This document shows positions 8,491-47,814 of a stretch of DNA of 64,000 nucleotides, piece after piece. Each line of letters begins with the position of its first letter. Position 1 is the stretch's first letter. Origin of the DNA: Botryllus schlosseri (taxonomy: Eukaryota). Both the position numbers and the translations under genes were made by a program. Below the pieces are notes generated by a model. It did no database searches and was not told the DNA's origin. It saw only the letters and a list, made by a program, of their open reading frames with translations. Location: NCBI GenBank assembly GCA_051294905.1, contig CM119373.1, positions 1,304,001-1,368,000 of the forward strand. Reading direction: 5' to 3'.

Positions 8491-9072
8491 TTTTATCTTT
8501 CAACGCGACATAGCTAGAGTCATTTTTATTTTATCACCCATCGAGTCCGAGTAATTCTACAAATGGTCGCGCCCATGTCCAAATCACAATTTTCAGTAGA
8601 AATCATCAACGGGCCATGCTTAACCATCATAAACAAGTGATGCCACGTAATAAGTAGGCCTATCCTTCTACTGCGTCGTAACTTTCGAAAGTGATGTAAT
8701 AATGAGGATTGATGAGTGGTTTCAGGCTTCTGGAGTAGTTTGAGCGAATTTTGGGTTATCTAATTCAACAAAAATTGACATTAAATATTGTCGAATACTT
8801 CTATATCCAAAATGCCGTCACGGGCCGCATGCGTGTTTGAGACCGCTGACTTAGAGGGATATGTTTCTGTGAAGAACTCAGCAGGTATAGCTGTCCAACA
8901 TGGCTGTAGCCATAGGCGCCGAGTTACGGGGTGGCGGGGTGGCGCAGCCACCCCATGACATATTTATGGGGTGGCGGCCACCCCATACAATATGATCAAA
9001 CGCCCACCGTCTGCGATTTCAAATCATCAGCGCTGTCAATTAGCGAGTCCGTTATAGCGCGTAAATGCCAAC

Positions 9073-9230
9073 TGTGGTGATCGCTATCGTCTCATTTCGG
9101 TTTTGTTATTATTACTTAATTGGTTGATTATGTACTCTAGTCTTAGGTATAAAACCATTGCGTTTCTATTCATTGTTTGTCTTAGTTAATAAAAGCCTTG
9201 GATGTAAAGAGGTGTATTCGATTCACAACA
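9073..9230 (+). repeat. 5' LTR
   Basis: Direct repeat of 12954-13111. TATAAAA at 9148-9154; AATAAA at 9188-9193. Confidence 0.97.
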
Positions 9231-9231
9231 A

Positions 9232-9250
9232 TTTTATTAACTAAGACAAA
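9232..9250 (+). promoter_or_regulatory. Self-complementary primer-binding site (not tRNA-type)
   Basis: TTTTATTAACTAAGACAAA is the exact reverse complement of LTR 9176-9194. There is no TGG-starting tRNA-type PBS after the LTR. Confidence 0.85.
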
Positions 9251-9262
9251 GCAGCTTTAGTC

Positions 9263-12200
9263 ATGTCGGTCGATGGAGGAGCAGAAAACCGCCGATGCCC
9301 TATTCTCATAAGGGTACCTACTCTTGAGGTGTTGCCGAATGCTCCGGCCGTTCAGAAGTCATTCTGTCATTGGGAACGACAACTGGAATCCTACATAGCT
9401 GCTGCATCCTTTGCCGATGCCACAGTAGATAAGCTTGCATTATTGTGTGGATTCATTTCGGCGGACGTCTACGCATTGATAGAAGAAAAGCAATCCTACG
9501 ACGAAGCTCTGAAGTTATTACAGGATCTTTACAAACCTAAGAAAAATGTTATATTTTCAAGACATCTTCTCTCAAGTAGAGCGCAAGATACCAGCGAGAC
9601 CGTTCAGGAATTTCATCAAAGCTTATCAGCGCTCGCAAAGGATTGTGATTTCAAGAGTGTCACCGCCGACCAATATCGCCAAGAATCCATAAGAGATGCT
9701 TTCATCAGAGGTTTGAAATCTTCCCATATACGTACGAGACTGCTTGAATGCGAGGAACTGCCACTGCAAAAAGCGATTATCACTGCTATTTCACTGGAGA
9801 AAGCTCAAGAATTTTCCATTTCCTATAAAGTTAATGACATCGATGCACGTTTCGTTGCAAGCACCTCTAACGATCCCAGCCGGCCTGCGAGAGACGCACC
9901 GGATCCTCAGCTCAACACGGTTTCTGCAATTAGCAGAGTGTCCGAAGTCAAATCAATCAAAGAATGCACGTTCTGTGGAGGTACCCATGTCGCTAAGCGC
10001 GACCAATGCCCAGCATCGATGGTTGAATGTTATAAATGTGGCAGACTTGGACATTTCAGAAAGTTCTGTAAATCAAAAAGCAAATACCTGGCTGCTGCTC
10101 CGAAATGTTTGAAGGACTCGACCATACCCCTTACAACTGCACAGCAGATATTCGATGCTATGCTCGATTCGGGAGCTGCTGAATGTTTCATCAAACTGGA
10201 TATTGCCATCAAACTAGGTTTGTTTCCACAGGGACCAACTTACAGTATCAAATTGGCTTCCAACAAATGCGCCACCGATGTGCTAGGACACGTTACCGTC
10301 GTATTCATAGTGGCGTCACGTGAGTACACTCATCAATTTGGCATAATCGATGATTTATGTGCAGACTTCGTCCTGGGACTAGATTTCATGAGATTGCACA
10401 AGAAGGTTATTTTCGAATTCAAAGATGGCAAGAACGAGCCATTTACAGTAGGCGTAAACTCTCACTTGGCACTTGTTACTTCCATAGTCGATGAACCGCT
10501 TCGTATATTCCAATTCTTGACTCCAGATTGCAAACCTATTGCCGCTCCTTCTCGAAGGTATAGCAAAGAAGATAACGAATTTATTAAAGGAGAAGTACAG
10601 AAGCTCCTCAGTGACGGTATCATAGAACCGAGTCATTCACCTTGGCGTGCTCGGCCACTAGTAACCAGGGACGCGCGGCATAAACGAAGACTTGTCATTG
10701 ACTATTCAGTATCTATCAACAGGTACACCAATTTGGATGCTTATCCACTGCCACGTATAGAAGATGTTATCAATGAAGTCTCTAAAGGCAAGTACTATTC
10801 AGCCGTTGATTTGAAATCGGCTTACCATCAAGTCCCGTTACACCCTGATGACAGACCTTTCACGGCGTTCGCCGCTTGCGGTTCACTTTACCAATTTTGC
10901 AGATTACCGTTCGGCGTCACGAATGGAGTAGCGGCTTATCAACGTTACATCGATTCGTTTATTTCAAAGCATCAATTACAGGGTGTAGTGGCGTATTTGG
11001 ATGATATTACAATCTATGGCGCGACCAAGGAAGAGCATGATATCCGCTTGAAAGCATTTTTAGATTCCGCAACAGCTTGTCACCTAACCATCAATACAGA
11101 GAAATCAAGTTTTGGAATCGAAGAAATACAATTGCTTGGGCACAAAATATCTCACGGCAACATAAGTCCGGACCCTGACCACATGAAGCCGCTTCTGGAA
11201 ATGGCCGCGCCAACGGACTCTAAAGGTTTGAAACGTATATGCGGTATGTTTTCATATTATTCCAAATGGATTCACAATTTCTCGGCTAAGATTAGGCCTC
11301 TTATTCGTTCATCCAATTTTCCTTTGGGACCTGATGCTATTGCTGCTTTTCATCAATTGAAGAAAGAGATAATGGACTCTTGTCTAGGATGCATTTACGA
11401 AGACCAACCATTTACAGTTGAGTGTGACGCGTCAAACTGCGCCATTGCAGCAGTTTTGAATCAGTGTGATCGGCCTGTAGCGTTCTTCTCTCGCACACTT
11501 ACAAAGACAGAATCGAACTACCCCGCTATTGAGAAAGAAGCTCTCGCAATCATTGAATCGGTTCGGAAGTGGAACTACTTGCTTGCCAATCATAAATTCC
11601 TTCTTGTTACAGATCAAAGAGCGTTATCTTACATATTTCAGAAGAAGCATCACAGCAAAATCAAGAATACAAAACTTGCGCTATGGCGTCTTGAACTCAG
11701 CTCTTTCAACTATGACATTTCACATCGCGCGGGAATCGAAAATGTCGCTGCAGACACCTTGTCTCGTATTTGCTCCGTAACCGGTTCAGGTCAAAATTTG
11801 AATGAAATCCATGCACAACTTGGCCATCCCGGAGTTAGCCGATTGGCCCACTTTGTTAAATCCAAGAATTTACCGTATTCCACGGAAGACGTGAAACGTA
11901 TCTGTTCCAGCTGCCGTGTATGCGCAGAACTCAAACCTAGATTTTATAAAGGAGATTCTCACCAATTGATCAAAGCCATTTATCCCTGGCAAAGAATATC
12001 AATCGATTTCAAAGGTCCGGTCCCCGGTAAACGTAAATTCATTTTAATCATTGTCGACGAATATTCACGATTCCCTTTTGCATTTCCATGCTACAATATG
12101 ACGTCGGAAACCGTAATCGAATGTCTAATGACGTTGTTCACTCTCGTTGGATTGCCTGAATATGTACATAGCGATAGATCGATGTCATTTATGTCGAAAA

Positions 12201-12892
12201 GAATGAACGATTTTCTAACGAAGAAAGGTGTTGCAACAAGTCAATCAACCCCTTATCACCCCACTGGCAACTCCCAATGTGAGAGAACCAACCAAACTGT
12301 TTGGAGAACAGTTAAACTACTGCTTGCCCAATACCAAATGCCACTGTCCTCATGGGAGGAGGTACTCTCAGACGCATTACATTGTATCAGGTCGCTTCTG
12401 TGCACGGCTACAAATTGTACACCTCACGATCGATTTTTCTCTTTTCAAAGACGATCAATGAATGGCTCTTCATTACCCGATTGGCTTTTCAAGTCGGGCA
12501 CTGTTCTACTGCGTAAGTTCGTCCGCGATAAGAGTGACCCTTTATGCGATAAAGTGTATTTGCTCGATGCTAATCCAAAATACTCTTTGATTCGCTATCC
12601 AGATGGCAGAGAGTCGACCGTCTCCACTACAGACCTTGCTCCTTATCCGCGTATGACCAATGTCACCGAATCCTTGCCACAAGAAAAGAAATCTCTTCCT
12701 TCTCGATCGGACTTGGATATGCCCTCCAGCGAAATCGAAGAAGAAAAGGTTACTCAGGCCGACGAATTCTGTAGTGAGGACGCTACCATCCCTGCTGAAA
12801 CCGCTGACAATGCTCAAAGCAGTTCGACTCCGAGACGCTCTTCACGGACAAGAAGAGCTCCTGATAGATATGGGGATTTCGTTTCCCATTAG
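9263..12892 (+). CDS. Gag-Pol polyprotein (Gag, two Zn knuckles, protease, RT, RNase H, integrase), 1209 aa
   Basis: CTFCGGTH..C and CYKCGRLGHFRKFC knuckles; LDSGA protease; LPFG and YLDD RT; ECDAS RNase H; H..H..CxxC plus D..D..E integrase, in Gypsy domain order. Confidence 0.97.
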   Translation: MSVDGGAENRRCPILIRVPTLEVLPNAPAVQKSFCHWERQLESYIAAASFADATVDKLALLCGFISADVYALIEEKQSYDEALKLLQDLYKPKKNVIFSRHLLSSRAQDTSETVQEFHQSLSALAKDCDFKSVTADQYRQESIRDAFIRGLKSSHIRTRLLECEELPLQKAIITAISLEKAQEFSISYKVNDIDARFVASTSNDPSRPARDAPDPQLNTVSAISRVSEVKSIKECTFCGGTHVAKRDQCPASMVECYKCGRLGHFRKFCKSKSKYLAAAPKCLKDSTIPLTTAQQIFDAMLDSGAAECFIKLDIAIKLGLFPQGPTYSIKLASNKCATDVLGHVTVVFIVASREYTHQFGIIDDLCADFVLGLDFMRLHKKVIFEFKDGKNEPFTVGVNSHLALVTSIVDEPLRIFQFLTPDCKPIAAPSRRYSKEDNEFIKGEVQKLLSDGIIEPSHSPWRARPLVTRDARHKRRLVIDYSVSINRYTNLDAYPLPRIEDVINEVSKGKYYSAVDLKSAYHQVPLHPDDRPFTAFAACGSLYQFCRLPFGVTNGVAAYQRYIDSFISKHQLQGVVAYLDDITIYGATKEEHDIRLKAFLDSATACHLTINTEKSSFGIEEIQLLGHKISHGNISPDPDHMKPLLEMAAPTDSKGLKRICGMFSYYSKWIHNFSAKIRPLIRSSNFPLGPDAIAAFHQLKKEIMDSCLGCIYEDQPFTVECDASNCAIAAVLNQCDRPVAFFSRTLTKTESNYPAIEKEALAIIESVRKWNYLLANHKFLLVTDQRALSYIFQKKHHSKIKNTKLALWRLELSSFNYDISHRAGIENVAADTLSRICSVTGSGQNLNEIHAQLGHPGVSRLAHFVKSKNLPYSTEDVKRICSSCRVCAELKPRFYKGDSHQLIKAIYPWQRISIDFKGPVPGKRKFILIIVDEYSRFPFAFPCYNMTSETVIECLMTLFTLVGLPEYVHSDRSMSFMSKRMNDFLTKKGVATSQSTPYHPTGNSQCERTNQTVWRTVKLLLAQYQMPLSSWEEVLSDALHCIRSLLCTATNCTPHDRFFSFQRRSMNGSSLPDWLFKSGTVLLRKFVRDKSDPLCDKVYLLDANPKYSLIRYPDGRESTVSTTDLAPYPRMTNVTESLPQEKKSLPSRSDLDMPSSEIEEEKVTQADEFCSEDATIPAETADNAQSSSTPRRSSRTRRAPDRYGDFVSH

Positions 12893-12953
12893 ATAAATTT
12901 TGTTTGAAATGGTTATTTTCAGCGCTAATGTCTGTTTTATTGGTCGGGGAGAT

Positions 12954-13111
12954 TGTGGTGATCGCTATCGTCTCATTTCGGTTTTGTTATTATTACTTAA
13001 TTGGTTGATTATGTACTCTAGTCTTAGGTATAAAACCATTGCGTTTCTATTCATTGTTTGTCTTAGTTAATAAAAGCCTTGGATGTAAAGAGGTGTATTC
13101 GATTCACAACA
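12954..13111 (+). repeat. 3' LTR
   Basis: Identical to the 5' LTR; preceded by the PPT and followed by TSD CCAAC. Confidence 0.97.
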
Positions 13112-15639
13112 CCAACTATTTACCATTAACCGATATCTGCGCGCGAATAATTGAACACGCAGCTTCGTCGGCGACGACGAACTAGTGCTTGAAACGCCCC
13201 AATAAATTGTGATCCGTGATTACTGATTGATTAGTAATCAGACAGTCGAAGCAACCTCGCTTACGACGACGATTTCGACACGCTTGCGCTGAGAAACACC
13301 ATCTTCTCTCTCGACCAGACGAGCGAATTCACGTTCTCGTATGTGTATTTGCTTGCGCCCATATTCGTTTACAAAATAATTCCTGAGTTAGTTCCGTGAT
13401 ATTCTCTTTAATTGGAGGTTTGGAGCGCGAAATAGGACAGTGTGTTTGTGTAGCCTATGCCTGCGAATGAAAGTCATATTCATTACTCTAACTTGGCTTT
13501 GCCAACTTTTATCGGGAAATGCAACAATGCAGCTCAAACGTCGTTATAATGAGCAAACAATTGTGGCGATGTCAGACTCGGACCCCATTGTGCTGTACGC
13601 AAATTGAGGAATTACTGATTAGATGCGCGCTTTCTCGTTCCCTATCATCTGTAGGCTACTAATTCTTGTCTGCTATATACACTCGTATTCCCTAGGTGTC
13701 CCTTATCAGCGTTTGAGTTGTTATTAATACCTCGCATTGTGCACTATAATACCTCGCATTGTGCAGTGCACAGAGTTGAATTACGTTGTCAAATATTGAT
13801 GCAACACGATATTCTCGGTAGCACAAATTATGAATTTATTCGAGTAGTTTGAACGGAAACCTTCGATGTTCCAATACACTTCATTGCTGGACGGACTCTG
13901 TCGAGCGCAACCATATCGCGGATATAATTTCAAACCTTAGGGATATGTATTTCCAGTGATAAGGTCGCGCCATGCGCCCATATCGCTCTTACTGCAATAA
14001 CACGTGGATAATTGAAAGCGCACCATTTTACGATCAAATTCGACTGGCTGACCGGGGCCTACGTAGGCCGTATAGGCCCCGGGCTGATATTAACCAGCGC
14101 GTTGTCGGCATTAAAACCCCAGATGCGTAGCCAAGGAGTTTCTCATTTATAACTAGAAATCCCGTTCTTTCGAAATGCCAATTCACTAATTCGTATTATC
14201 GATGCTGCGTACTGCAAATTGGCTAGAAGCATTTGTATGCGAAATGGGTCATTCGATATCTCATGTGCACTATCGTCGGTATTTTGATTTAGCACGTCCG
14301 CAAAAACACTTTCGCCAGACAGGAACGATCTCCGAGTGTAATATTGTTTGTGTTTATGTATCTTTTTAATTAAAACTTGTGCCCGCGCCCGAGCAAATTG
14401 GGCTCGTTGCCATTGCCGAATCTGGGTATTTGGGTATGATTAGCGCACCCTGAAATTGTAATTATTGCAGGTTTGCGGCATGTCTGCAATTTCGTTATCA
14501 GCGCAACCTTGCCGGCCGATTGTACATTCCGATAAAATTGATCAATACTATGTATTTCGCACACCGAACTGATGCCTAACGATCTTTATTAGATGTACAA
14601 ATTCTACCTCATCGTTAGAAACCTAGATTCCATCGCGTGCTCTGAGAAACACCATCTCCTATCGCGATTCAACGACCAAATATACTTTCACATTATACAA
14701 ATTAAAGTACATTAATTGCATCGATGAGGGCCGCAAGCCGCGTTTAAAATATTTTGTGAACCATTCTTGTGATAAATATTTTCGGAGCGCAAAGTTGAAC
14801 AGTGTTTTATTGTGTGTGCCTGCTAGTTTAAATTTATTCCAGTGCCCATAATATTCATCCAATTATGCTTTGCGGACGTAAATCGGAAAATGTAGCAATG
14901 CAGTCCAAATCGATGTTTTAATCAGCAATCAATTGTCGCGATGCGAGTTACTCAATACTAAGTAAAAACCTACTGTGTTGGCGGTAAGGGATAATTACTG
15001 ATTGACCGTGCGCGTTTGTAATCATAATTCTTGTCTGTCCTTCGTGTTCCAGAATTGTCGTGCCGTGTTACTATTCAGTTCTCGATCCAGCGACGAATGC
15101 CGAGTGCGCCGCAATCAATGACCTAATTTCGCAATAGCCTCAGCGGGAGATCGCGTCGCGCTGCATTGTGCGATGCGATATGCGTGCACAAACGAATCTC
15201 GCTAATTGGTCGCGGTCCCACGTAACACTGATAACACAACTTGTTGAATTGCAACTGACTAGTGGTGCCAGAATGGTCATTTCAAAAGGTCGGGGTTTTG
15301 CGTTTCAAAAGGAGGGGGTTCAACACCCCCTGGCCACGCGCCAGCCGCCACCCCAAGCAAAAATAAAAGTCGCCGCCTATGGCTGTAGCTGTCTGGTATT
15401 TAACTGAGAGGCTGTCCTGGTGTTGCGGTCGTGATATTCTAATTTGCCTAGTTCCTTTGCATCGGGTAGCATACGACCTTTTGCGCCAGCTTATTCAAAT
15501 CAGGTAGCTGGAGGTAGCTACGGCAAGCTGCACAGTTCAAACAACTGCAAACTCTGATCTCAATGTAAAGCCTCATCATCCAACTAACTAACTTGATTCA
15601 ATGTGACTATCCGTATGTCATTCACCAGGTTGAACCCAG

Positions 15640-23766: not shown

Positions 23767-25979
23767 GTTGGTATAACCAAGTGCAGAAAAAAATTTAAAG
23801 TAAACAATCACCCGAATAACAAATGAGCCGAATTGGATAAATGTCTGTCAGCTTGCCACACACTAATAATGTTCGGTCATAATGTTTGTCGCTGTTCAGG
23901 TGATACAGCAGCTTGGGATTGAGCTCGGGATTTTGCTGCACTAATCATAATAACCAGAAATACTTTTACACAGTTCTAGAATGGCCAAGCACACCTTGGA
24001 CATATTTCCTGATACTGAGTTGTGCAAGTTATATATTTGGCTGCAATGCACTCTACAGTCTACATATAGTTGGAAAGGCAGTATCATGTAGTTACTGGAC
24101 TTTCCCTTCCACCCAATTGATGTGCCGAGTTCGCGAAATAGTTTTAAATAATATTGGAATCTCTCACACATAGAGACCTATCTACAATGTACCAGTCATT
24201 GTTAAGAATTGAAATAAATTTATAGTCTCATATCATGTCAGTTTACTTTGATCTCATCTCTGATGGCAGCCATACAAATAATATATACATTAAATATCTT
24301 ATTGATATATACAGAAATATATAATCTGGGACATATAAACGAGATATATTTATGATATGTTTCAGCACAAGATTTAAACAAAATTAGGACAAGAAAAAGA
24401 TATCTCAACATGTCAGAAAAAATGTATCTCGTGTTTGCTGGGTACTAGCCTACTGTGTACGAGGGTTGGATTATCCGGATAACGGTTAACCGCAGGTTTT
24501 TTTATTATCCAATATCCGGATATAAATCTGCCGGTTAACCGGATAAAATAGTATCGTTATTAATGTGTTTTAAAGTTTTTAGGAAGCTTCAATAAGTCGT
24601 ATTATCAGTATTCCGCGCGTCCAATTAGGTCATTGATTGCTGCCGCGAACTCGGCTATCGTTGCTGGCCTGATTTTTCGAGTCTTCAACAAGCCTATAGT
24701 TCCACTGGCAGAATCACATCTGCAATAGGCTCTGTGGACATTAAACCATCACTGGCCTACGTAATCGCATCTGCATTGGCTTGGTGCTCACGATGTTATC
24801 GCTGGCCTGCACAATCGCATCTACAATAGGCGTGGTACGAACGATATCATCGCTAGCTAAACCATAGTCTCGGGCCTGGCATGCGTTGGCTCCTATCTCT
24901 TAGTGGCTTGGAGACAATATGCCGCTGAGATTATTATGATCAGCGATTGTGATTAATGAGTCACATTGCGAAACTGAATGACATCGAATGTTCGCATTCC
25001 GGAAACATGTTCGTGCGTGCAAGCGTAATTGATTTACGCTGATACTAAATTCGAAAAAAATCTAAACCACCTCGTTCTATTTAAAACACCCCCCTCACTT
25101 TTCGGCTCGCTACGGGCCTGATCATGTGAATTTCGCATAAAGGAATTAGAACGAGCTAGCATGTCGGCCTCAATTACGGTATCAGCTACTCATCATTCCA
25201 GTACTGGACACCTAAACAGAAGAATGGGCAAAAAGGAAGCACTGCTTACTATATTCAGCCTTGCTTACTATCATTCAGCCCATTTTGTGGAAGCAGAAAG
25301 AGGATTTAATACGTCTGGACTCTTTGTTACAAAACTCGGTCCCGGCTACAGGATGCGCCACCTCGTAACCGCGTAAGTCGGGGCCTATGATCACAGGTAT
25401 AGGGAGGGTAGGTAGGGTAGGGTATGGCATGGGATAGGAATCGTTATTATAACGTTTAAGGGAATGTAGGATGAAAGGAGGGGACTTAATATAACATGGG
25501 TTATGGTAATTAGCAGAAGAAAAAAATTGTGGTCAAGTTATATATGTAATAAAACAAAAAGCTGCTGTGTAGGTGGAAATGCCAAAGGTGTTCTGAACTT
25601 GAAATGTTGGCTTTCTTCTTCATCATCTTTATTTTCTACTTGACCTTCTTCTTTTTGTGAATTAGTTTATTGTTCGTTAAAAATTGTTTCAATTTCTTTC
25701 CAGTTTTGAATCCGATACGAAAGGGAATGGGGTAACTGCGTTTGGTGATGTGTCTGATCTGTTTTGTTATGGTCGAAGACTTTATAGAATTGGTGCGTGA
25801 TGTAGGTCAGATTATGGGTAAGTTTTTCTATGTTCGTATCTCTCTTAGCAATACTCCTGCAATTTTGTATGACTCTTCTGGGGCATTGTATGACTCTTCT
25901 GGGGCAATTTAGCTTGCGTAGCCTATTCTTGAATCTATGTGTTGTGTTTTTCAGATATCTTGGATTCGAATTTGTATGG

Positions 25980-27430
25980 TTCATTGCACCTGCTATTGCC
26001 AGACATCTATGCACATTTTTCAACTTTTCAATCAATCATGGAATATTTCCAGACCATCTCAAACAAGCCAAGGCTGTACCAGCTTACAAAAAGAATGACA
26101 TTACATTTGAAAGACTTCTCTACCGTAGAATAATTGACTTTGTTATGAAAAATTCACTATTATCCGATGAGCAATTCGGTTTTTTAGCCAATAGAAGCAC
26201 TACGCAGGCCCTAGCCGACATGACATCCAGACACTTCAAGTCATTTGATAACAAAAAAAACATCATGCTGTGTTTTTTAAGACATCAGCAAAGCATTTGA
26301 CTCTGCTAACCACCAGATACTGATTAGAAAACTTGTTCAGTTTGGCATACGTGGTATTGGCTCGAAACTTATATCTGACTACTTGAAAAACCGACGACAA
26401 TGTGTGTATGTCAATAGTACTATCTCCGCTCCATCAACTATAACTTGTTGCGTCCCTCAGGGGTCTGTATTGGGGCCTTTATTATTTCTTATATATATCA
26501 ATGATGTTAGCAAGGTCTCCTCTCTGAAAGCCGTACTATTCGCTGATGATGCCTGTTTCTCAGCATCCTCAACATCCTTGCAGACCTTGCAAGAATTGAC
26601 ATCTGATGAAATGACAAAGATCTGTAATTGGATGAGAAATAATCTACTTTCCATCAACCGCAGTAAAACCCAACTTCTCTTATTTAATAATTCCAATTCG
26701 CAAAAAAACAATCCATTTTCCAATTCGCAAAAAAACAATCCATTTTCTGTAAGAATCAATCAAACTATCATTAACCCAGCTGATCACGTTCGCTAGCTTG
26801 GAATTCTTGTCGATTCGAAATTGTCATGGAAACCTCAGATCGACTCAGTCACCTCGAAATTGTCAAGGGCTACGGGCATGCTACAACGATTGAAATATCT
26901 AATGCCACAAAAAGTGTGCGCAGTGTATTTTGCTATTTTTCAATCTCAGCTTCAATATGCAATAAATATATGGGGACATACAAATGTAACAAACCTTACA
27001 AAAATCAAAACTCTCCAGAACCAGGCTCTTCGTGTCATTAGTAAATTACCTCCCAGGCGACGAATTCTCCCGGAATGTCGAAGTCATGGTATACTCAGAG
27101 TTGCCGACCTAATTCAGTACGAGACGGCAAAGATGATGCACACCATCTTCCACACAAACGGGTCATACTTTAATTCGCATTTTACAACTTTTGCGAAAAC
27201 TCATGGGTATGAAACTAGACAGGTATCGAGAAATTCTATTTCGCTGCCTCTCCTGTCCCGATGTTCATCCCGCAATAGTTTACATTTTGTCGGTGCGAAA
27301 ACTTGGAATGATCTCCCTGCAGAGCTGATACCAATACCGCCATGGCAGTTAGAAAAAAATATAAAAATTATCTACTACAAATGTACTGTTGATTTTTTTT
27401 CTTTTATACAATATTCATATGTATTTAGTG
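25980..27430 (+). pseudogene. 5'-truncated CR1/L2-group LINE ORF2 (reverse transcriptase)
   Basis: AKAVPAYKK, QFGF, DISKAFD, YLKNRRQCV, VPQGSVLGPLLFLIYIND, LFADD, LGILVDSKLSWK and H.YETR...WN.LP; stops and frameshifts present. Confidence 0.9.
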
Positions 27431-27793
27431 AAAGTGTTAAGGTGTGTGGGGTGTATGGAGGTGATTATTAGTCCGTCGTCTAAGTATCTGCGGGACACTG
27501 TTATTGGCCAAGTTGTGGAAAGTTGAGATATAAGGTTTTGTTCGTATATGGCAAGAGTTAGATCGGCTGCCTGTGCAGAGTAATAGCTTCACATAGCTAA
27601 ACCGTCTTTTTGTATATACAGCGGAAGAGAAGTAACAGAGACTTAGGCAGAAATCAAAGAGGTCAAAGGTTGTAGATGGAATCCGGGACATCGATTATAT
27701 ATACATGGTATCACGGAAGAATTGTTTTCACGCTACTTCGATAGCGAGCTACCAAGTTTCAAGGTGGGCAACCACAAACAGAACACGCGAAAC

Positions 27794-30398: not shown

Positions 30399-32447
30399 CA
30401 GTGTTGGGATCAAGTCACTACCTTCGAGTCACGAGTCATTGCACATTTTGAGTCGAGTCAAGTCAAGTCACTCGATTTTTGGAGGTGACTCGAGTCAAGT
30501 CGAGTCAAGCCAAGTCGAGTCAAGTCAAGTCACGAGTTGAGTCACAATTCAAGTCAAATTGCCTTCTCGAGGTATGAGGCGTGATTACGTCATTGTATTC
30601 TACTAGCCGTCTGAAATACATATTAAATATACACACGAGAAAGGCGCTGTATCACTCACATATAAGTAGAGCTAATAAACTACGTAAGTAATTGCACAGC
30701 GTCAGTTTATAGTTACCAGCCAAAATAGAGAAACGAATTGATAAGATGCAATACATAACCCTTTTGCAAATTGATATGATACAATTCGAGCCTGCGCCAA
30801 TGGTCGAGGACTATGAATAAACTATTTTCTAATTCCATTTCAATAAAACAAGAGGTTTGGTCAAGTTAAGAACACATTTTGCTATAATATTACTTTACTA
30901 TGCTATAGTTTACGGCAGGGGTTCTCAACTTTCCTTGCGTAACGGGCCGCATTTTAACAGCAAAAAGCGCTGCGGGCCGCACAACATTATTACCGTATAT
31001 TTGTGGACTATACTATTATATTTAGGCTAATATAGCCTATTTACCAGTCGTGTATGGGCATTTAGTTTGTATGCATTCTACAGCATAATGGACAGCGTTC
31101 GTAAGCTTTCAGTTGCTGTTTCTAGTGAGATTGTGTCATCTTCCGACGGAACATCAAGTAAATCCCTTCATGAAGCGTGCATTGCATTCGTTCCCAAGTC
31201 GGTATGTGCAGTTGTGCACCTTCAAACCCTTGCACCAGAGAACTGAACTCTCTGTTTCAATAAGTCAGCGAGCAAGTATAAAACTACGGCAACTTTGTCT
31301 TTACAGAGGCCATTGTCACTTTGGGCTCTCAGTGATATGAGAAGAAGTCTCATGTCCGGAGTAATTTCTGAGCAAACCAATCAACCATTCTCCTTTCCTT
31401 CTATGGCTGATGCCCTGCACCAATAATAACAAAGTTGATGTTGTTTGCTAGTCCGCTCTCCCCACGTTTGCCCAGCCAGCATTACCTCTACAAATATATC
31501 CACTCTGATAGAATACCCCAATACAATTGGCGTTGCAATGTCCGTAGATTTTGTCCAATGCTAGGTTAAAGTAGTCTACGGAGCAACACGTTTCAAAACA
31601 TGCGACAAAAGATTAACTGACATTGCTGTTACTCTTCTTGTCACGGTTGAATCAGACAACGGCAGCTTCGAAATTTGTTAGGTGAAGTTGTCCTTGCTGC
31701 TAAATTCCGGAAACTGCGGAGATTCGCACATTATAGTAACGTTTTGTTGGAGAAACACCTTTTCTAACAGATTTCATGGGTTTAGCGATACACCAAGCAA
31801 TTTTGAACCACGCGTTTTTAACGTCGCCGGCAATCTCAACAATGCCTCAAAATATGGATTGCTTAGAAAAAAGCGTTGCTAGCTAGGTCTCAGGCTAAGT
31901 TCAGGTGATATGTATAACTCGAAATGGAACTGTCCGAAGACCTATTCAGAACAATGAGAATCTAAACTCGACCATATATCAAGAAACCAGAAAACATTGA
32001 AGAATGAGAATAAATCAAACGAAACAGAGACGGAGCGATAAGAGAGCTTTAATAGCTAAATTGATACTGTATTCAACAATACTGCGCCGGTAATAATTGC
32101 GATCATATTGAAAGATCTCGCGGGCCACAGAAAAAGCATCTGCGGGTCGAGAACCCCTGGTTTACGGCAACGTAGGCTCTAAGCTTCGACCACTTCGTTT
32201 GCGATTCTGAGAAAACAATGGAGGCTCAGAAAAACGCACGATCATTGATTGATTGGTCGATCTCACGGGTTGCGCGAACAATCCGAACATATGCAAGATA
32301 CAGTGATTTTTATCTACACCGATTACTTGATGACTTTGCTTCGAGTCACGAGTCAATCAACATTTCTGATACGTCGAGTCAAGTCAAGTCAAGTCATTTT
32401 ACCAAAGCGACTCGAGTCAAGTCATGACTCAAGTCATCCCAACACTG
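30399..32447. mobile_element. Second copy of the same MITE family nested in the first
   Basis: Same TIR; perfect TSD CTATTTAG. Confidence 0.92.
30916..32159. mobile_element. hAT Charlie-like non-autonomous element (innermost)
   Basis: TIR CAGGGGTTCTC / GAGAACCCCTG; perfect TSD GTTTACGG; related copies start at 34357, 46709 and 57478. Confidence 0.92.
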
Positions 32448-32792
32448 CTATTTAGTAGATTATTCTTCTACTACTACGTCCTACGACAACCTTTAAGGCT
32501 AAGCTGTGATTGTTTAGTTTGCGGTCAATCTATTTGTGATCTAACAATCGAGGATCAGTGTATCGCACAATTACTGAATGACTGGTTGCTCTCGCAAGTC
32601 GCAATTGACACCGGCGTATCTCGAACAATCCGAACATAGGCCTACACAAGATACAGTGATTTAATCGACACCGTTTACTTGATGACTTGAAATTGACTAG
32701 TAAATATTGCTCTGATTCACGAGTCAATGCGCATTTTGCGCATTTTTGAAGCTCCAAGTCATGACTCGAGTCATCCCAACACTGGCAGTAGC

Positions 32793-33730
32793 ACGGCAGC
32801 AAACAGCAACCTCAATATGCAAATTAGTTTGCTGGTCTCGTGCACAATATTATCGCCTACTTCTCATTACCAGATTCTATGAGGCTCTGTATCGGCGGGC
32901 GAACGAATTTATACGCATACTTAACGTGCGTGAGGTACGGGATATAGCAAGCGCTAATTTTCAAAAGACCGGCTTCCCGCAAGTTTCCGAAGCAATCGAC
33001 GGCTGTCATATTCACGTAAGGCCAACGCGGGATTATATCAATAGGAAAATATATCCATCTCAGGTTCTTCAAGCAGTGGTTGATGATAAATGCCGGTAAT
33101 CACAATAACATCTTACTGCCAAATTTTTAACCTGTAAATAATTTGTCGAATCCGTTAGCTTCAGAGTTGTGTCAGTCAAGATAAGATGCCCGGCAGTGAG
33201 CACGACGCCTCAGTGCAGCGAGATTCGAGACTATAAAGAGAAAGCGAGAATCTCCCAAAGTAATTTTTGATCTGACCACTTAATTATAACAGCGAATACA
33301 AATGTTTGGATATTTACATATTCAGAGCAGTATTTAAATCAACAACGTCGATTTTCCGCTGAAGATTGTCGGTGATGCAGCTTATCCGATGCTACCGTAT
33401 CTCACGCGCCCGTACTGCGGAACAAATCTGACGCCGATACAGGAAAAATTCAATTTTCATCACAGCAGTGAGAGAATTGTTGTTGAAAACGCGTTTGGAA
33501 AACTCAAATCACGGTGAAGGATTTTTTAATGTCAATTGGACGTGAATATATGTCAAGCACCATCATATGTGATTGGTGTCCTACATAATATTTGTTAGGA
33601 TGCGCAAACCCCGGCTCCAATGGATGCAAGAGCTGTGAATGGAGATCTCAGTAATCCAACACCTGATCCCGCTTTTGATAGTGAAGTTCGCCAAACCCTT
33701 GCCGAATATATTTTCAACATTCGCCAATAA
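32793..33730 (+). pseudogene. PIF/Harbinger (HARBI1-like) DDE transposase pseudogene
   Basis: FPQVSEAIDGCHI, YINRK..SQVLQAVVD, PGSEHDA, IVGDAAYP, RIVVENAFGKLKSR and VLHNIC; premature stops; N-terminal part lies left of the MITE nest. Confidence 0.9.
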
Positions 33731-33807
33731 TTGTGTGTTATTGGTCGTTAGTCTCTGTTCGTTTGGTCGTTTGAATAATATATTTATCATTAATAAACAT
33801 TATTTTT

Positions 33808-34310
33808 TCAAATAAAATTTCGGCTGGAAATACTAGCCGCGATGTTGTTTATTATTGCCGTCAAAACCGACTGCATTAAGGCATTGGGATTGGCTATTTG
33901 CTCCACGTGCCTCTCCTCGGACTCTCTCAAGAACTGGAGCTGCTGGTCACTCATTTCCTTCAGATATTTTTTTATACTCTCTTTTTCTGATAGCTGGTCA
34001 TCCGATTCCCTTCTTCTTTTGGTGTCCCTTGAAGTCCCTTCATTAAAGAAATAATAGTACAACGCATAGTACATTGAATTATTTTTATACCATTTATGAC
34101 CTGTTGCGGAGTCTCACATGCTGGAATATCAGCAACAGGCGATGACGTTCCTGACGGCTCCATAGCGATTGCCTCACTTGATGCACTAGAGTCCCAGTCA
34201 ACCGTTTCGTCGTTAACTGCATTCGGCTGTACAAAACGCTAGCTCTGAAGACCGGCGTTTTGAATTGCTGACTAACGAAGTAGAGTATATTTATTAACTC
34301 GGCTAATGGC
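33808..34310 (-). pseudogene. C-terminal exons of the convergent Harbinger accessory (Myb/SANT-type) gene
   Basis: Spliced, coiled-coil-like ORF (KKYLKEMSDQQLQFLRESEERH) converging on the transposase, as expected for Harbinger. The Myb domain itself was not seen. Confidence 0.45.
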
Positions 34311-34356
34311 ATTTACTATTTATCACGAATCATAAGCATATACGCTTACTTTACAG

Positions 34357-37300
34357 TAGGGGTTCTCAACATTACCTGCATAACTGGCCGCATCTTAACA
34401 GCAAAAACCGCTGCGGGCCGCAGAACATTATTATCGTATATTTGTGGACTACTAATATATTTAGCCTATTTACCTGTCGTATATGGGCATTTAGTACATT
34501 TGTATGCATTCTACAGCATTAATGGAAATCGTTCGTAAGCTTTTAGTTGCGTTTTTTCATGGGATTATGTCATATTACGACGAAACAAGTAGGCTAAATC
34601 CCTTCATGGAGCGTGCATTATGCACTAGGGTGGAGTGAAAATGACTTTTTTTTTTCAAATCAAAAAAGGCCTTCCTCAATCCTGACAAATGATCTAAAAC
34701 TTCAATTAAAAGTGACTTCAGGGTGTTTCCCCCATTTTCCAGCCGGCAACCCCCCAATTTCTGCGCGTGGGGGGGGTAAAATGGCCCATCTCGGCAACCG
34801 CTGGTCGTAGAGTCATGATATATAGCTCAAAATCTGCGGAAGCATAATGTTTCTATCTGTCTTCTGAAGAAAGTTTTCTCTATTGTGAACACAAAATGAG
34901 TTATAGCCAAAAAACTATATATACGCACATTTTTGTTGAAATTCAGCATTTATTCTGACGAATTATGATCTGTCATTAGTTTTTTTTAAAGTAAAGTAAC
35001 ACACTGGCAATACCGAATATTGGGCCCATATTACAAATATATTCACAACACAGTCCTTTTAAAATCGGTTGAAAACATCATAATGAAACATTAACATTGA
35101 ACGTCTTATATTAAAAATGCATTCTTTTGTCAAGTTTTTTCATCAGTTTACGAGACTTAATTTTTCGGCGAATGAGGCCATCTCGTCTTTGAAATCCCGA
35201 AACGTGCCCTGATGCTTCTGTTACGAGCTTTACATGATGTTCCATGCACTGTTTGATTGCGGCATGGATGAAACAAAATCAGAGGCTTCTCGCGGCATTC
35301 TTCTAACTCTGCATCAGTTAAGTGCTCAATCGCTGGAGAAAGTTGTTGATATAAGGTTCAATATCAACCAACTCGTGGTATACCTTTGCTTCCAAGTTCA
35401 ACTTTAAGACGCAGAATAAACGAACAGGACCGCAGTTCAATTGGTTGGAACCGCTATGACTCTCAATGTCCAGGAGTGAATTTTATTCAGCGGCATGTTT
35501 TCGAATCGCCAGCACCTTGGTCACACCCAATTGAAAAAAACTACGTGGAAGTGTATCTTGTTGGCCAGTTACTCAATTCAAAAAGCTCTTGCCACCACTT
35601 ATGGCCTTTCAAAAGCTCCCACAGGAAATTGTTAGTGACTTAAGGACCAGTTATAGGCCCTATGCTTATAAATGTGCTGGGCAATTATTCAAGGAAATGC
35701 TGATGATGATCTGGCTTACTTGGAGGTTGGACCAGCGGTTGCGCATTCAAGATGGCTAACTTTAAGATGCAGTGCAGAGTTTTACGGTATTATGTAACAG
35801 TTAATGAACCGCCTTTAAACCTGGAGATTCTAGTTCATTTTTGCCTTGAAGTATATTTTCCAACTTGGTTTGAGATCAAGGGAAACAAACATATAACACA
35901 TGGACCCAGAAACATCCACAACTTGATTAAACAGGTTTTGAATTTCTCTGACCGAAACGTTCGAAAAATTGCTCCGAATGTGGTGATAAGAAACGGTTAT
36001 TCCGCACACCCCGAAAATATTATGATTGCAATGCTGGTAGATGATAATGAAGACATACGAAATAAGGGTGTGACCAAGGTGCTTGCGTTTCGAAAACATG
36101 CCGCTGAATAAAATTCACTTGTGGACATTGAAAGTCATAGCAGTTCCAACCAATTGAACTGGGGTCCTATTCGTTTATTCTGTGTCCCAAAGCCTAGGCA
36201 TACCACGAATTGGTTGATATTGAACCTTATCAACAACTTCCTCCAACGATTGAGCACTTAACTGATGCAGAGTTAGAAGAATGCCGCGAGAAGCCTCTGA
36301 TTTTGTTTCATCCATGCCACAATCAAACAGTGGAACGACATGTAAAGCTCGTAACAGAAGCATCAGCACTAGTTTCGGGATTTCAAAGATGAGATGGCCT
36401 CATTCGCCGAAAAATTAAGTCTCGTAAACTGATGAAAAAACTTGACAAAAGAATGCATTTTTAATAAAAGTCGTTAAATGTGAGTGTTTCATTATGATGT
36501 TTTGAACCGATTTTAAAAGGACTGTGTTGTGAATATATTTGTAATATGGGCCCAATATTCGGTATTGCCACTGTGTTACTTTACTTTAAAAAAAAACTAA
36601 TGACAGATCACAATATGTCAGAATAAATGCTGAATTTCAACAAAAATGTGCGTATATATAGTTTTTTGGCTATAACTCATTTTGTGTTCACAATAGAGAA
36701 AACTTTCTTCAGAAGACAGATAGAAACATGATGCTTCCGCAGATTTTGAGCTATATATCATGACTCTACGACCAGCGGTTACCGAGATGGGCCATTTTAC
36801 CCCCCCACGCGCAGAAATTGGGGGGTTGCCGGCTGGAAAATGGGGGAAACACCCTGAAGTCACTTTTAATTGAAGTTTTAGGTCATTTGTCAGGATTGAG
36901 GAAGGCCTTTTTTGATTTGAAAAAAAAAGTCATTTTCACTCCACCCTATTATGCACCTTCAAACCCTTGCACCGGAGAACTGAAATATGTTTCAATGCGT
37001 GAGCGAACAAATAAAAAATTACGGCAACTTTTTCGTTACAGAGGCCATTCTCACTCTAAGCTCTCAGTGGTATGAGAAGAAGTCTTATGTTCCGGAAATT
37101 TTTGAGCAAACCAATCAACCATTTTTCTTTCCTTCCATTGATGATATGCTGCACCAAGTTACAATAGTCAGCTTTGCCACGTTGATGTTGTATGCTGGTT
37201 CCATCTCCCCACGTTTGCCCGGTCAGCATTACGTTAAAAATATGTCCACTCCGATAGAATAATCTCTCATACAATTAGCGTTTTAATGTCCGTGGATTTT

Positions 37301-37997
37301 GTCCGATGCTAGGTTAAAGTAGTCACGTGGCAACGCGTTTCAAAACATGCGACAAAAGATCAACTGACATTGCGGTTATTCTTCTTCTCGTCACGGTAAA
37401 ATCAGACAACTGTAGCTTCGAAATTTGTTAGATGAAGTTATCCTTGCTGCTAGATTCCGAAAACAGCGAAGATTCACACAGCATAGTAACGTTTTGTTGA
37501 AAACACACCCTTTCTAACAGATTTCATAGGCTTAGCGATATTCCAAGCAATTTTGAACCATGGGTCTTCAACGTCGTCGGCAATATTAACAATGCTTCAA
37601 AATATGGATTGCTCGGCTTGGCACCTAGCTAGCAACGCTTATCTCTAAGATCAGGCGAAATGCCCCACGCGTCTTTGACGTCGTCAACAAACTTAACAAT
37701 GCCTAAAAATATGGATTGCTAGGCTTGACACCTAGCTAGCAACGCTTTTTTCTAAGATCAGGCGATATGTATAACTCCAGATGGAACTGTCAGAAAACCT
37801 ATTCAAAACAATATGAATCTAACTAAACTCGACCATATATCAAGAAACCAAAACACACCAAAGAATAAGAATAAATCAAATGAAACAGAGATAGTGCGAT
37901 AAGAGAGCTCAAGTAGCTGAATTAATATGTAACAATACTGTGCCAGTAGTAATTGCGATCATAATCAAAGATCTCGTGGGTCGCGGAATAAGCGTCT
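34357..37997. mobile_element. Charlie-like element (same family as 30916-32159), right TIR lost, containing a nested fold-back element
   Basis: Starts TAGGGGTTCTCAAC; colinear similarity to 30916-32140 on both sides of the nested insertion. Confidence 0.8.
34626..36948. mobile_element. Fold-back hAT-related element with ~870-bp inverted repeats
   Basis: TIR TAGGGTGGAGTGAAAATGAC; perfect TSD TTATGCAC; inverted identity runs to ~35505/36088; transposase C-terminus relic (YFPTWFEIK, AHPENIM, PCHNQTVERHVKLVTEAS). Confidence 0.92.
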
Positions 37998-39355
37998 GAT
38001 GATGCATCCCTTCTGAAACAAGAAATTCGTTCACCACTTGCATAAGCGCCTTTGCAATATTTCTCCGCAGGTTCTGTGCTATCCATCGGTCAAAACAGAC
38101 ATGTAGGCTACGGCGGTTTCCTTCACAGCAAGCCAGTCATGCTTTAAGTTTGTGGGAAGTAGCCGCTGTTTGTTCATCATCATGTATCTAGTCACTGTGA
38201 ACATGTCCTGCATCAATCTTAAGTCATTATCTTCCAACCAACCTACAATGCGCTTACAGAATTACCGCCGTTAGTAAACTCCTTTACCAACTGATCAGCA
38301 AGCCACTGCCGTCGTGATCATTGAAGCATAGCCGATTAGCCAATCGAGAGCCGTGATTTCATGATTACTAGTCTTGATTCCGTTCGATGGTCGCTAGCAC
38401 GCCCACTCGTCGGTAGCTACTTTCAAACGCTTTGCGACAAATATTAACGACGTTCCTGAGAGCTTATTCCAGGCTCATTGTTATTTTTTATCAATAATCT
38501 ATAGAATGAGACATTGATACCCATCATTTTTGAGATTTTCCAAATTTTGGACAACCCTAATGCACATGCATATTTGCTTGAATGGTGGAAAATACTGAAA
38601 CCGATCATTTGGCGACTAGCAAAAAATCTCATTATAAAATCGCGGAATGTTCATATGACAAGAACGTTTGATATCGTGAATGCATTCCCTTCAATACACC
38701 ACTGGATAAGAATTCGATATAATATACATCTACACTCGTACAATTGATATGTTAGCAAAAAGTAGTGATGAAAATAACGAGAAGAGTTGCCTCTGACACG
38801 AACCGATCATCATCATGGGGAACACTTCTCAATGCGGTCAATATATCGAACAAGTTCTCATTACTCTCTCGCAATATAACTTACATGATTGATTTTCTGC
38901 ACTAACTACAGACAATACTGTGGAATCACTTTTAAAATGATGTTCAAGTGGCTGATCCTATGCTGGTATGACAGCTATAACCATTCATTTACTGATATGC
39001 GCCACATTATGGATATAATCAATGTCTACAAATTTACCTTGAAATAAATAGCACCATCACCGGGTCAGATACCATATCTTCAGTCACTCTTCCAATTGAT
39101 GTTCTGAAGGTCTTGACTGGCATTTTCAGTTTGGGCATTTTCTCTTGTTTTGAAGCAACCTTCAATTACTGTTCTGTTCTTTTGCGATGTTTGGCGATGT
39201 AGCATTTCACGGCTTGGTTGATTGTATCCAATGCAAGAGAACGGCTGAACTCATTTATTACATAGTTTGTATGCAATTATCATTATACATTCTGTAATAA
39301 CATGATCATCAGTCAATAAGGAGAAGCACAATTGCGTACCGGTAACAAACTATCG

Positions 39356-46230: not shown

Positions 46231-46708
46231 CATTTGGCCTTGATTGACACTCCTTAATCAAGCAGTCTGCAGTCACGGCTCATTTACGTAGCGTTGAGCG
46301 GATTCCGTAGTCCGTACCCAGTAATCGCAGCCATGCGTTAGATTCGATGAACAGTCGGACACGCGTCAGCACAAGCCGATAAAATAAACGCGCTCCTTGA
46401 GGATTAATGTAGCACTTTCGTTGACACGTTCATCCGCTTGCGTTGTTTGGTGACAGTGTTCATGTTCACTTGCGGCGCGGCTAGGCTGCCAAGAACAAAT
46501 CGACAATTGTAATTGTCGCAAAGCTTCTGACCTAACAGTATGTCGATGTGACGCTCCATCAAGCAAAGTTAACAGTGATGACATATAATTATACACACAC
46601 TGCCGAAACTTCCGGACCGGAACGCGTGTTTTTGAGTGCATATAGTTGTACTTTTTTCCTTTTGCCGGCTGTGGATTTGTTAATGGAGTCATCAGGTACA
46701 CTTTAGAG

Positions 46709-47390
46709 CAGGGTTTCTCAACTTCCGCAGAACATTATTACCTTGTATTTTTGGGCTGCTATTAAATTTGGGTTTCTGTAGCCTATCTACCAATCGTATA
46801 CGGACATTTAGGACATTTTTATGAATTGTAAAGCATTGATGGGCGAAGTTCGTAAGTTTGCAGTTGCTGTATTTTTGTGAGAATAAGTATCTTCCAGCGG
46901 CGCAAGTAACTCCCTTCATGGAGCGTGCATTGCATTCGTTACCAAGTCGTTATATGCACCTTCAAACTCTTCCACCATAGAACCGAACTTTCTGTTTCAA
47001 TGCGTGAGCGAGCAAGCATTAAATTACTTTCACTTTTTCGGTACTGAGGCAATTATCACTTTAAGCTCACAAATATACGAGAAGAAGTCTGGCGTTCGGG
47101 GTCATTTCTGAGCAAACCAACAACCCTTCTCCTTTCATTCCATAGTTAAAAAAGTCAGCTTTATCAAGTTGATGTCTTTCGCTGGTCCCTCCCCACTTTT
47201 GCCCCGCCAGCATTTCGTCTGCAAATATGCCCACTCTGATAAATGTACCCAGATAATAAGCTCTGCAATGTATATGGACTGGAGCCAGTGGATTAGTCCA
47301 ATGCGAGGCTAGAGTAGTCTTCGCGGCAACTTGTTTCAGAACATGTGGTAAAAGATCGACTGACATTGCTGTTACTCATCTGGTCCCCTT
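46709..47390. mobile_element. Truncated Charlie-like element copy
   Basis: CAGGGTTTCTCAAC start; colinear with 30916 onward. Confidence 0.75.
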
Positions 47391-47814
47391 GAACCAGAGT
47401 CCAGCCGTCCAATCAACTTGACTGAAACGATCAATCAACTCAGTGACATTAATCCGAAAATGCAGCAATACAGCTTAAACACCGATATAATGAGAAAACA
47501 ATTGTCGCGACGAAAGCTACTCAATATGGTGTCACACTCAAAACCGATTCGTGGTGATACTGATTAATTAGATTACACGCTTTCTCATTTGCCATCATCC
47601 ATATTTCTTGTTATCTACTTGATACATTCGTACTACAAAATTGTCGCACAAAGTCATTTTTCGCTCATCTGTTTTGTGAATGTCGCCGGTGCCGACAACT
47701 ATTTTACTTGAAGGATATTATAGTTATTGCTAGACAGTATTTTCAAAATTTGATTCGTAAATTAGTATGAAGTAAAGTATTTTAGGACAGATATATTGGC
47801 ACCATGGGGAAAAT

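Follow-up and report, generated by a model that had tools for sequence, protein, structure and literature searches.

The primer of the retrotransposon Tf1 is 11 nt long. According to a passage of PMC4600332, self-priming has been shown for this element and is implicated in others from fungi to vertebrates. The parts of bioRxiv 10.1101/2022.12.06.519325 that deal with the Tf1/sushi elements describe them as self-primed chromoviruses, whose priming structure is a pretzel made of three duplexes. The Tf2 section of PMC5341516 reports a primer site with complementarity to the R region of the element itself, and no tRNA site. In plants a prediction of self-priming was made for 12% of the elements, in Tcn1 and in the Copia lineage TAR, the criterion being at least 10 bp of complementarity starting 0-5 nt after the LTR (passages of PMC6317226). 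Self-priming itself is already known, in animals too (Tf1/sushi, including vertebrates). The Cigr-1 clade occurs in Ciona and in molluscs, and the passages of PMC6238403 on this clade are silent on primer sites.

The window, i.e. the whole stretch of DNA analysed here (64,000 nt of Botryllus schlosseri contig CM119373.1), carries a Ty3/Gypsy element of 4,039 bp with two identical LTRs of 158 bp each. We consider it probable, judging from sequence comparisons, that the minus-strand DNA of this element is primed not by a tRNA but by a fragment cut from the element's RNA. Its features, all on the + strand, are as follows.

9068..9072, +, 5' target-site duplication CCAAC, the same as 13112-13116
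9073..9230, +, 5' LTR of 158 bp, TG...CA, identical to 12954-13111
9148..9154, +, TATA-like box TATAAAA, 31 nt upstream of G9179
9176..9194, +, arm within the LTR, predicted to act as self-primer; invariant core at 9183-9193, 5' end likely near G9179
9188..9193, +, AATAAA poly(A) hexamer, within the LTR arm
9195..9230, +, loop between arm and primer site (remaining R and U5), folding only weakly
9231..9232, +, AT dinucleotide after the 5' LTR, mirroring the AT before the 3' LTR; predicted 2-nt cDNA end
9232..9250, +, primer-binding site complementary to the own LTR, without TGG, with the invariant core 9233-9243
9263..12892, +, single Gag-PR-RT-RNaseH-IN ORF of 1,209 aa with its ATG at 9263, no chromodomain, no env
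12946..12953, +, short polypurine tract and terminal dinucleotide preceding the 3' LTR, similar in relatives
12954..13111, +, 3' LTR with a copy of the arm at 13057-13075; the poly(A) hexamer is presumably used here
13112..13116, +, 3' target-site duplication CCAAC

The LTRs, the target duplication and the Gag-PR-RT-RH-IN order are those of Ty3/Gypsy elements, and we classify the element as a recently inserted, non-chromoviral Ty3/Gypsy retrotransposon. Pfam matches in the ORF comprise protease, RT, RNase H, H2C2, the integrase core and one weak zf-CCHC, and the DSG and YLDD motifs as well as the four acidic residues of RNase H are visible in the translation. The preliminary description, which was made from the DNA sequence alone, stated that there was no chromodomain, and this was borne out by the Pfam search of the ORF (no match at E up to 0.1). 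It also counted two zinc knuckles; one corresponds to the weak zf-CCHC match, but the second is a knuckle-like Cys/His motif recognized in the sequence.

The window contains several other repeats and frames. Short GC-rich inverted repeats, possibly a small DNA transposon end, are clustered about 90-150 bp upstream of the insertion (8923-8987). Broken reading frames at 25806-27471, with an RVT_1 match at 26281-26793, probably represent a decayed retroelement, and one longer repeat has dispersed copies of 60-87% identity at about 30900-38000, 46700-47400 and 57400-58300. There is also a 216-bp unit in 8.2 tandem copies of 99% identity (51838-53598), and a frame with a P2RX7_C match, E 1e-5 (59966-60553).

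The two arms, 9176-9194 in the LTR and 9232-9250 in the primer site, are complementary at 19/19 nt and lie 37 nt apart, the primer-site arm beginning 1 nt past the end of the 5' LTR. In 20,000 shuffles of the LTR, each matched against the 25 nt following the LTR, the longest match was 13 nt vs. 19 nt in the real sequence, and when the entire window was scanned at 5-nt intervals, at least 14 nt were reached at this site only. The perfect 19-nt reverse complement 1 nt after the LTR, the starting point of the preliminary description, was thereby confirmed, and so was its statement that a TGG-type primer-binding site is missing: no TGG follows the LTR. A point absent from that description is that the LTR arm includes AATAAA (9188-9193). 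The loop 9195-9230 gave a z of 0.49 in folding and the stem test a p of 0.99 in the window element; an Rfam search returned no match at E up to 1.

Copies of the window element's own family are informative about the length of the putative primer. A genome search with the element yielded 42 matches, 17 of which include the primer site, and 15 of these 17 were compared. The LTR side of the duplex is unchanged in all 15. Full 19-nt pairing is found in eight copies and one internal mismatch, with the far end kept, in two, whereas in the other five pairing is lost from +18 onward (numbered from the LTR end), by several different changes. Position +17 pairs with G9179, and the spacing of 31 nt between the TATA box and G9179 is the same in 15/15 copies, one of them having a variant box. 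With tRNA primers the primer site is recopied from the primer in each cycle. If, by analogy, the site were recopied from a self-primer in each cycle, its protected part would stop at the 5' end of the primer. The variation among the family copies points to a start near G9179, and to a primer of 15-16 nt rather than 19.

The RT search used to survey the lineage listed 150 places, 134 of which were outside the window family; 80 were fetched, the choice favouring long open frames and identities spread over 48-69%. Counting the window element, 51 of the 81 have two TG...CA LTRs and a 5-bp duplication, and represent 12 families at 80% RT identity. The full 11-bp core (+3 to +13) pairs with the own LTR in 41 of these 51 elements, 10 of the 11 positions pair in seven and 8 of 11 in three, and TGG is present at the primer site in none (0/51). 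In the last trio L080 and L100 are deleted right after the LTR, and in L090 the LTR end had been mis-called, with 16 bp pairing at the true end. L100 (G000:C4:25471875-25478522) has identical LTRs and a target duplication; its deletion extends from just past the LTR into the gag zinc-knuckle region, with a single-copy junction. The idea that L100 had switched to a new 7-bp primer site was rejected, the bases being native gag sequence at this single-copy deletion. When 31 loci without an LTR pair were rescanned, 15 had the same geometry, four had unrelated matches and 12 had none. The metagenome contributed 18 loci, 16 of them scanned: in two contigs the geometry lies as far from RT as expected, namely in L112 with 13 bp (LTR end inferred) and in L113 with 11 bp, and the other scanned loci, many of which are short or decayed upstream, gave one misplaced match and otherwise none. 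Among viral contigs there were 22 pattern matches, with no relative among them, and an atlas search with Gag produced generic Gag clusters only.

As controls 17 more distant Gypsy elements were fetched, and the 13 with callable LTRs belong to about four families. All 13 have TGG at the primer site, their self-duplexes are 3-5 bp long, and 6-7 of the 11 core positions pair. From their primer-site motifs we take these same-genome TGG elements to be Mag-like. Judged from these sequences, the self-pairing trait is lineage-wide. The expectation, put forward in the preliminary description, that relatives keep the complementarity by compensatory changes held, and the tRNA-type Gypsy elements of the same genome do not self-pair.

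Pairing is kept and TGG is absent, and an 11-bp Watson-Crick core is maintained through differing sequences. The covariation was followed in 15 representatives (13 from this genome, two from the metagenome), which were picked with an intact duplex and aligned on the base opposite +3; in this set all 165 cells of the core are Watson-Crick and none is G-U, and every one of the 11 positions has 2-4 pair types. Outside the core +14 is paired in 12/15, +19 in 5/15 and +2 in 13/15 representatives, and +1 in none. The duplex begins at a fixed register, +2 or +3, which is where a primer must end. The duplex longer than that of Tf1, which the preliminary description ascribed to the element, turned out to be a family-specific feature: only the 11 bp from +3 to +13 are invariant (15/15 representatives), and even within the family the five copies mentioned above are unpaired from +18. 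The LTR is followed by the dinucleotide AT in 47/51 and GT in 4/51 elements, and AT or AA precedes the 3' LTR in 50/51. These terminal dinucleotides fit 2-nt cDNA ends and a primer ending opposite +3, which would place the cut after 9193, 9194 being possible.

The specificity of the pairing bears on the question whether the primer could be a host RNA, i.e. a tRNA fragment, a mitochondrial tRNA or another small RNA, the match to the LTR being secondary. The own LTR is the best partner in 12/13 rows, with a tie in one, and a foreign LTR gives the full core in 4 of 132 cross pairs. With 2-4 Watson-Crick pair types at every core position no single host RNA can be the primer; each family would need a different host RNA that tracks its own LTR, and it is this need to change with the LTR of each family which makes a host primer hard to accept. 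In the genome, the 16-nt complement of the primer site has 48 exact matches and all of them are in copies of the window element (45 inside matches of the family search, the other three in further LTR copies). It must be noted that half-tRNA primers do occur in Copia lineages (passage of PMC6317226), and that the tRNA set was incomplete: it consisted of 41 sequences of four isotypes (Lys, Met, Glu, Ala), and the best matches of 4-6 nt have to be read knowing that the TGG controls also matched just 5 nt, so that the comparison, which had no positive control, counts for little. On balance priming by a host RNA seems to us extremely improbable. Most of the distinct tRNA sequences among the 30 fetched loci are Lys(ttt), and G000:C3:34.49-34.51 Mb (L138-L150) is a dense tRNA gene cluster.

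The position of the transcription start was deduced in the preliminary description from the TATAAAA, which would place it near the arm. The box at 9148 and its constant spacing in the family speak for this, but the argument is not valid for the lineage, since only 4/15 representatives have a TATA-like box upstream of the arm. In L052, L062, L075, L092 and L108 the pairing continues upstream of the core for another 7-20 bp, interrupted but better than most cross-family pairs. This pattern suggests that in these five the start sites are upstream of the arm, hence the RNA does not necessarily begin with the arm. Most families share a (T/C)AGTT-like word (9183-9187 in the window), placed 10-11 nt ahead of the arm's end, which resembles an initiator or a 3' splice site. 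A trans-splice interpretation of the AG in the arm was dropped, since the match between primer site and unspliced LTR continues for 8 nt past this AG.

The mechanism that we favour, priming by a cut piece of the element's own RNA, would proceed as follows. Transcription would start at or upstream of the arm, in the window element probably at G9179, and the 5' end of the RNA would fold onto the primer site. The cut, just 3' of AATAAA (after 9193 or 9194), would be made by a nuclease, probably, if Tf1 is a guide, the RT/RNase H of the element. RT could then extend the new 3' end through U5 and R, copying about 37 nt before strand transfer. After strand transfer the plus strand would copy the primer back into the primer site, a step by which the two arms would stay exact complements. 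The preliminary description had proposed a mechanism analogous to that of Tf1. The analogy stands as far as the primer site derived from the own LTR, the lack of TGG and the compensatory changes are concerned, but it does not extend to the pretzel, and cleavage and priming are assigned by deduction. Pairing of the Tf1 pretzel type, between the stretch downstream of the PBS and the LTR after the arm, was significant in 0/15 representatives (p 0.12-0.80). In relatives the arm is immediately followed by a recurring (G/A)CC(T), and an (A)GGT recurs 6-7 nt ahead of the LTR end; the two could form a stem of 4-5 bp in about half of the representatives. In spite of this recurring short motif, a stem adjoining the arm was significant in only 2/15 representatives, the window element not being one of them. 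The pretzel and stem tests were simple energy and shuffle tests, which could miss weak structure.

The primer could also come from the element in trans or from its 3' end: the arm copy in the 3' R, the second RNA packaged along with the first, or a short small RNA derived from the LTR might anneal to the primer site. The arm is present also in the 3' LTR and in solo LTRs, and sequence cannot separate cis from trans. The loop, however, is 22-70 nt long across the 15 representatives, which suits local folding, and pairing in the window family decays just past the position 31 nt from the TATA box, as would be expected for a primer from the capped 5' end. We therefore hold this origin of the primer to be unlikely, and prefer the folding of the RNA onto itself.

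In three runs with raw reads on 8900-9700 and 9231-13200 (13-67 reads per run), neither the starts nor the ends of the reads pile up. None of the runs is recorded as RNA and X1 may be DNA; many of the reads are partial matches and thus come from other copies. A fourth run had no read.

A further possibility is that the helix has a different job, and does no more than mask the poly(A) signal in the 5' LTR while another primer is used. Hairpins mask this signal in some retroviruses, and here a poly(A) hexamer is in or overlaps the arm in 13/15 representatives. In L092 and L108, however, AATAAA is 39 and 21 nt from the start of the arm, outside the helix, and the pairing persists; masking is therefore not the only job of the helix. 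A purely structural helix would tolerate G-U pairs, yet the core has none, its end is fixed at +2/+3, and the elements offer no other primer site (TGG in 0/51). Masking as the sole function is in our judgement very unlikely. Together with self-priming, the same fold probably conceals the poly(A) signal present in the 5' LTR, and it is plausible that such masking is a second job of the helix in most families. The helix would also offer a way to ask by what means use of the 5' poly(A) signal is avoided in an LTR whose R and U5 are very short.

The RT-RNase H tree has 37 rows, and a branch with 100/100 support separates the 15 self-pairing rows and 15 database proteins from six TGG rows; the tree has long branches and contains no chromovirus reference (Tf1, sushi), and so does not reveal how the trait arose. 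A search of the genome with PF24626 for a chromovirus-type outgroup found none, but the control gave no match either. Protein relatives, known from proteins alone, are present in Trichuris, Trichinella, Ciona, an aphid, butterflies and crustaceans. The Ciona protein P0013 falls inside the self-pairing clade, with 54.5% over RT-RNase H. Cigr-1 is about 4.2 kb long, with one ORF of about 1,210 aa, which fits the window element. The supplements of PMC6238403 and PMC8556966 that were searched contain no Cigr-1 reference sequence. Cigr-1 is a candidate, and the likeliest, among existing names for the clade.

Our literature search found no report of self-priming in a non-chromoviral Gypsy lineage of animals; most subscription journals, Repbase and GyDB were outside this search. 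The relevant passages of PMC3601003, PMC5445492, PMC7472051, PMC5443660 and PMC3670739 contain nothing on priming in the self-pairing clade. A search for the name 'Selfy' turned up no paper. 'Selfy' may be a Repbase group, and we put at about one half the chance that self-priming of this lineage has already been noted in subscription journals, Repbase or GyDB. In its widest form our proposal is that of an undescribed pan-animal, non-chromoviral Gypsy clade (nematodes, insects, crustaceans, tunicates), in which self-priming is independent of Tf1/sushi and uses one 11-bp helix, not a pretzel, and in which the primer of most families is the poly(A) signal of the 5' LTR, so that one fold silences premature polyadenylation and primes. 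This combination we advance only tentatively, and are inclined to doubt. If it is true, tRNA-independent priming is the rule in a widespread lineage of animal Gypsy elements and not a chromovirus speciality, such elements would presumably lack a site for silencing by host 3' tRNA fragments, and annotation pipelines which demand a tRNA primer site would mis-annotate them. A helix so simple and so strongly covarying also allows a clean test of what RT/RNase H needs to cut an RNA-RNA duplex.

It is instructive to compare the element with the systems to which it is closest. The tRNA-primed Gypsy elements of the same genome share with it the TG...CA LTRs, mostly 5-bp duplications and the single ORF, but they differ by TGG (13/13), by not self-pairing and by their position across the 100/100 branch. 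Plant Tcn1, a Gypsy chromovirus, and TAR, a Copia element, conform to the same sequence criterion in the passages available on them, and TAR shows that the trait exists outside chromoviruses; these are, however, elements of other hosts and lineages, TAR being Ty1/Copia. In the parts of the sources that describe Tf1 and Tf2 of S. pombe, Tj1 of S. japonicus and the Tf1/sushi group, the 5' LTR is likewise followed by a primer site complementary to the element's own R, with no tRNA site. The window element differs from Tf1/sushi by having no chromodomain and no detected pretzel (0/15), and against Ty3 its RT-RNase H scores 161 bits, no better than that of a tRNA-type TGG control (191 bits). Since the chromodomain and pretzel tests fail and the Ty3 score is below that of the control, we do not file the element under Tf1/sushi. 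A further difference is that the arm usually holds the poly(A) hexamer here, whereas the 11-bp core of this lineage has the very length of the Tf1 primer.
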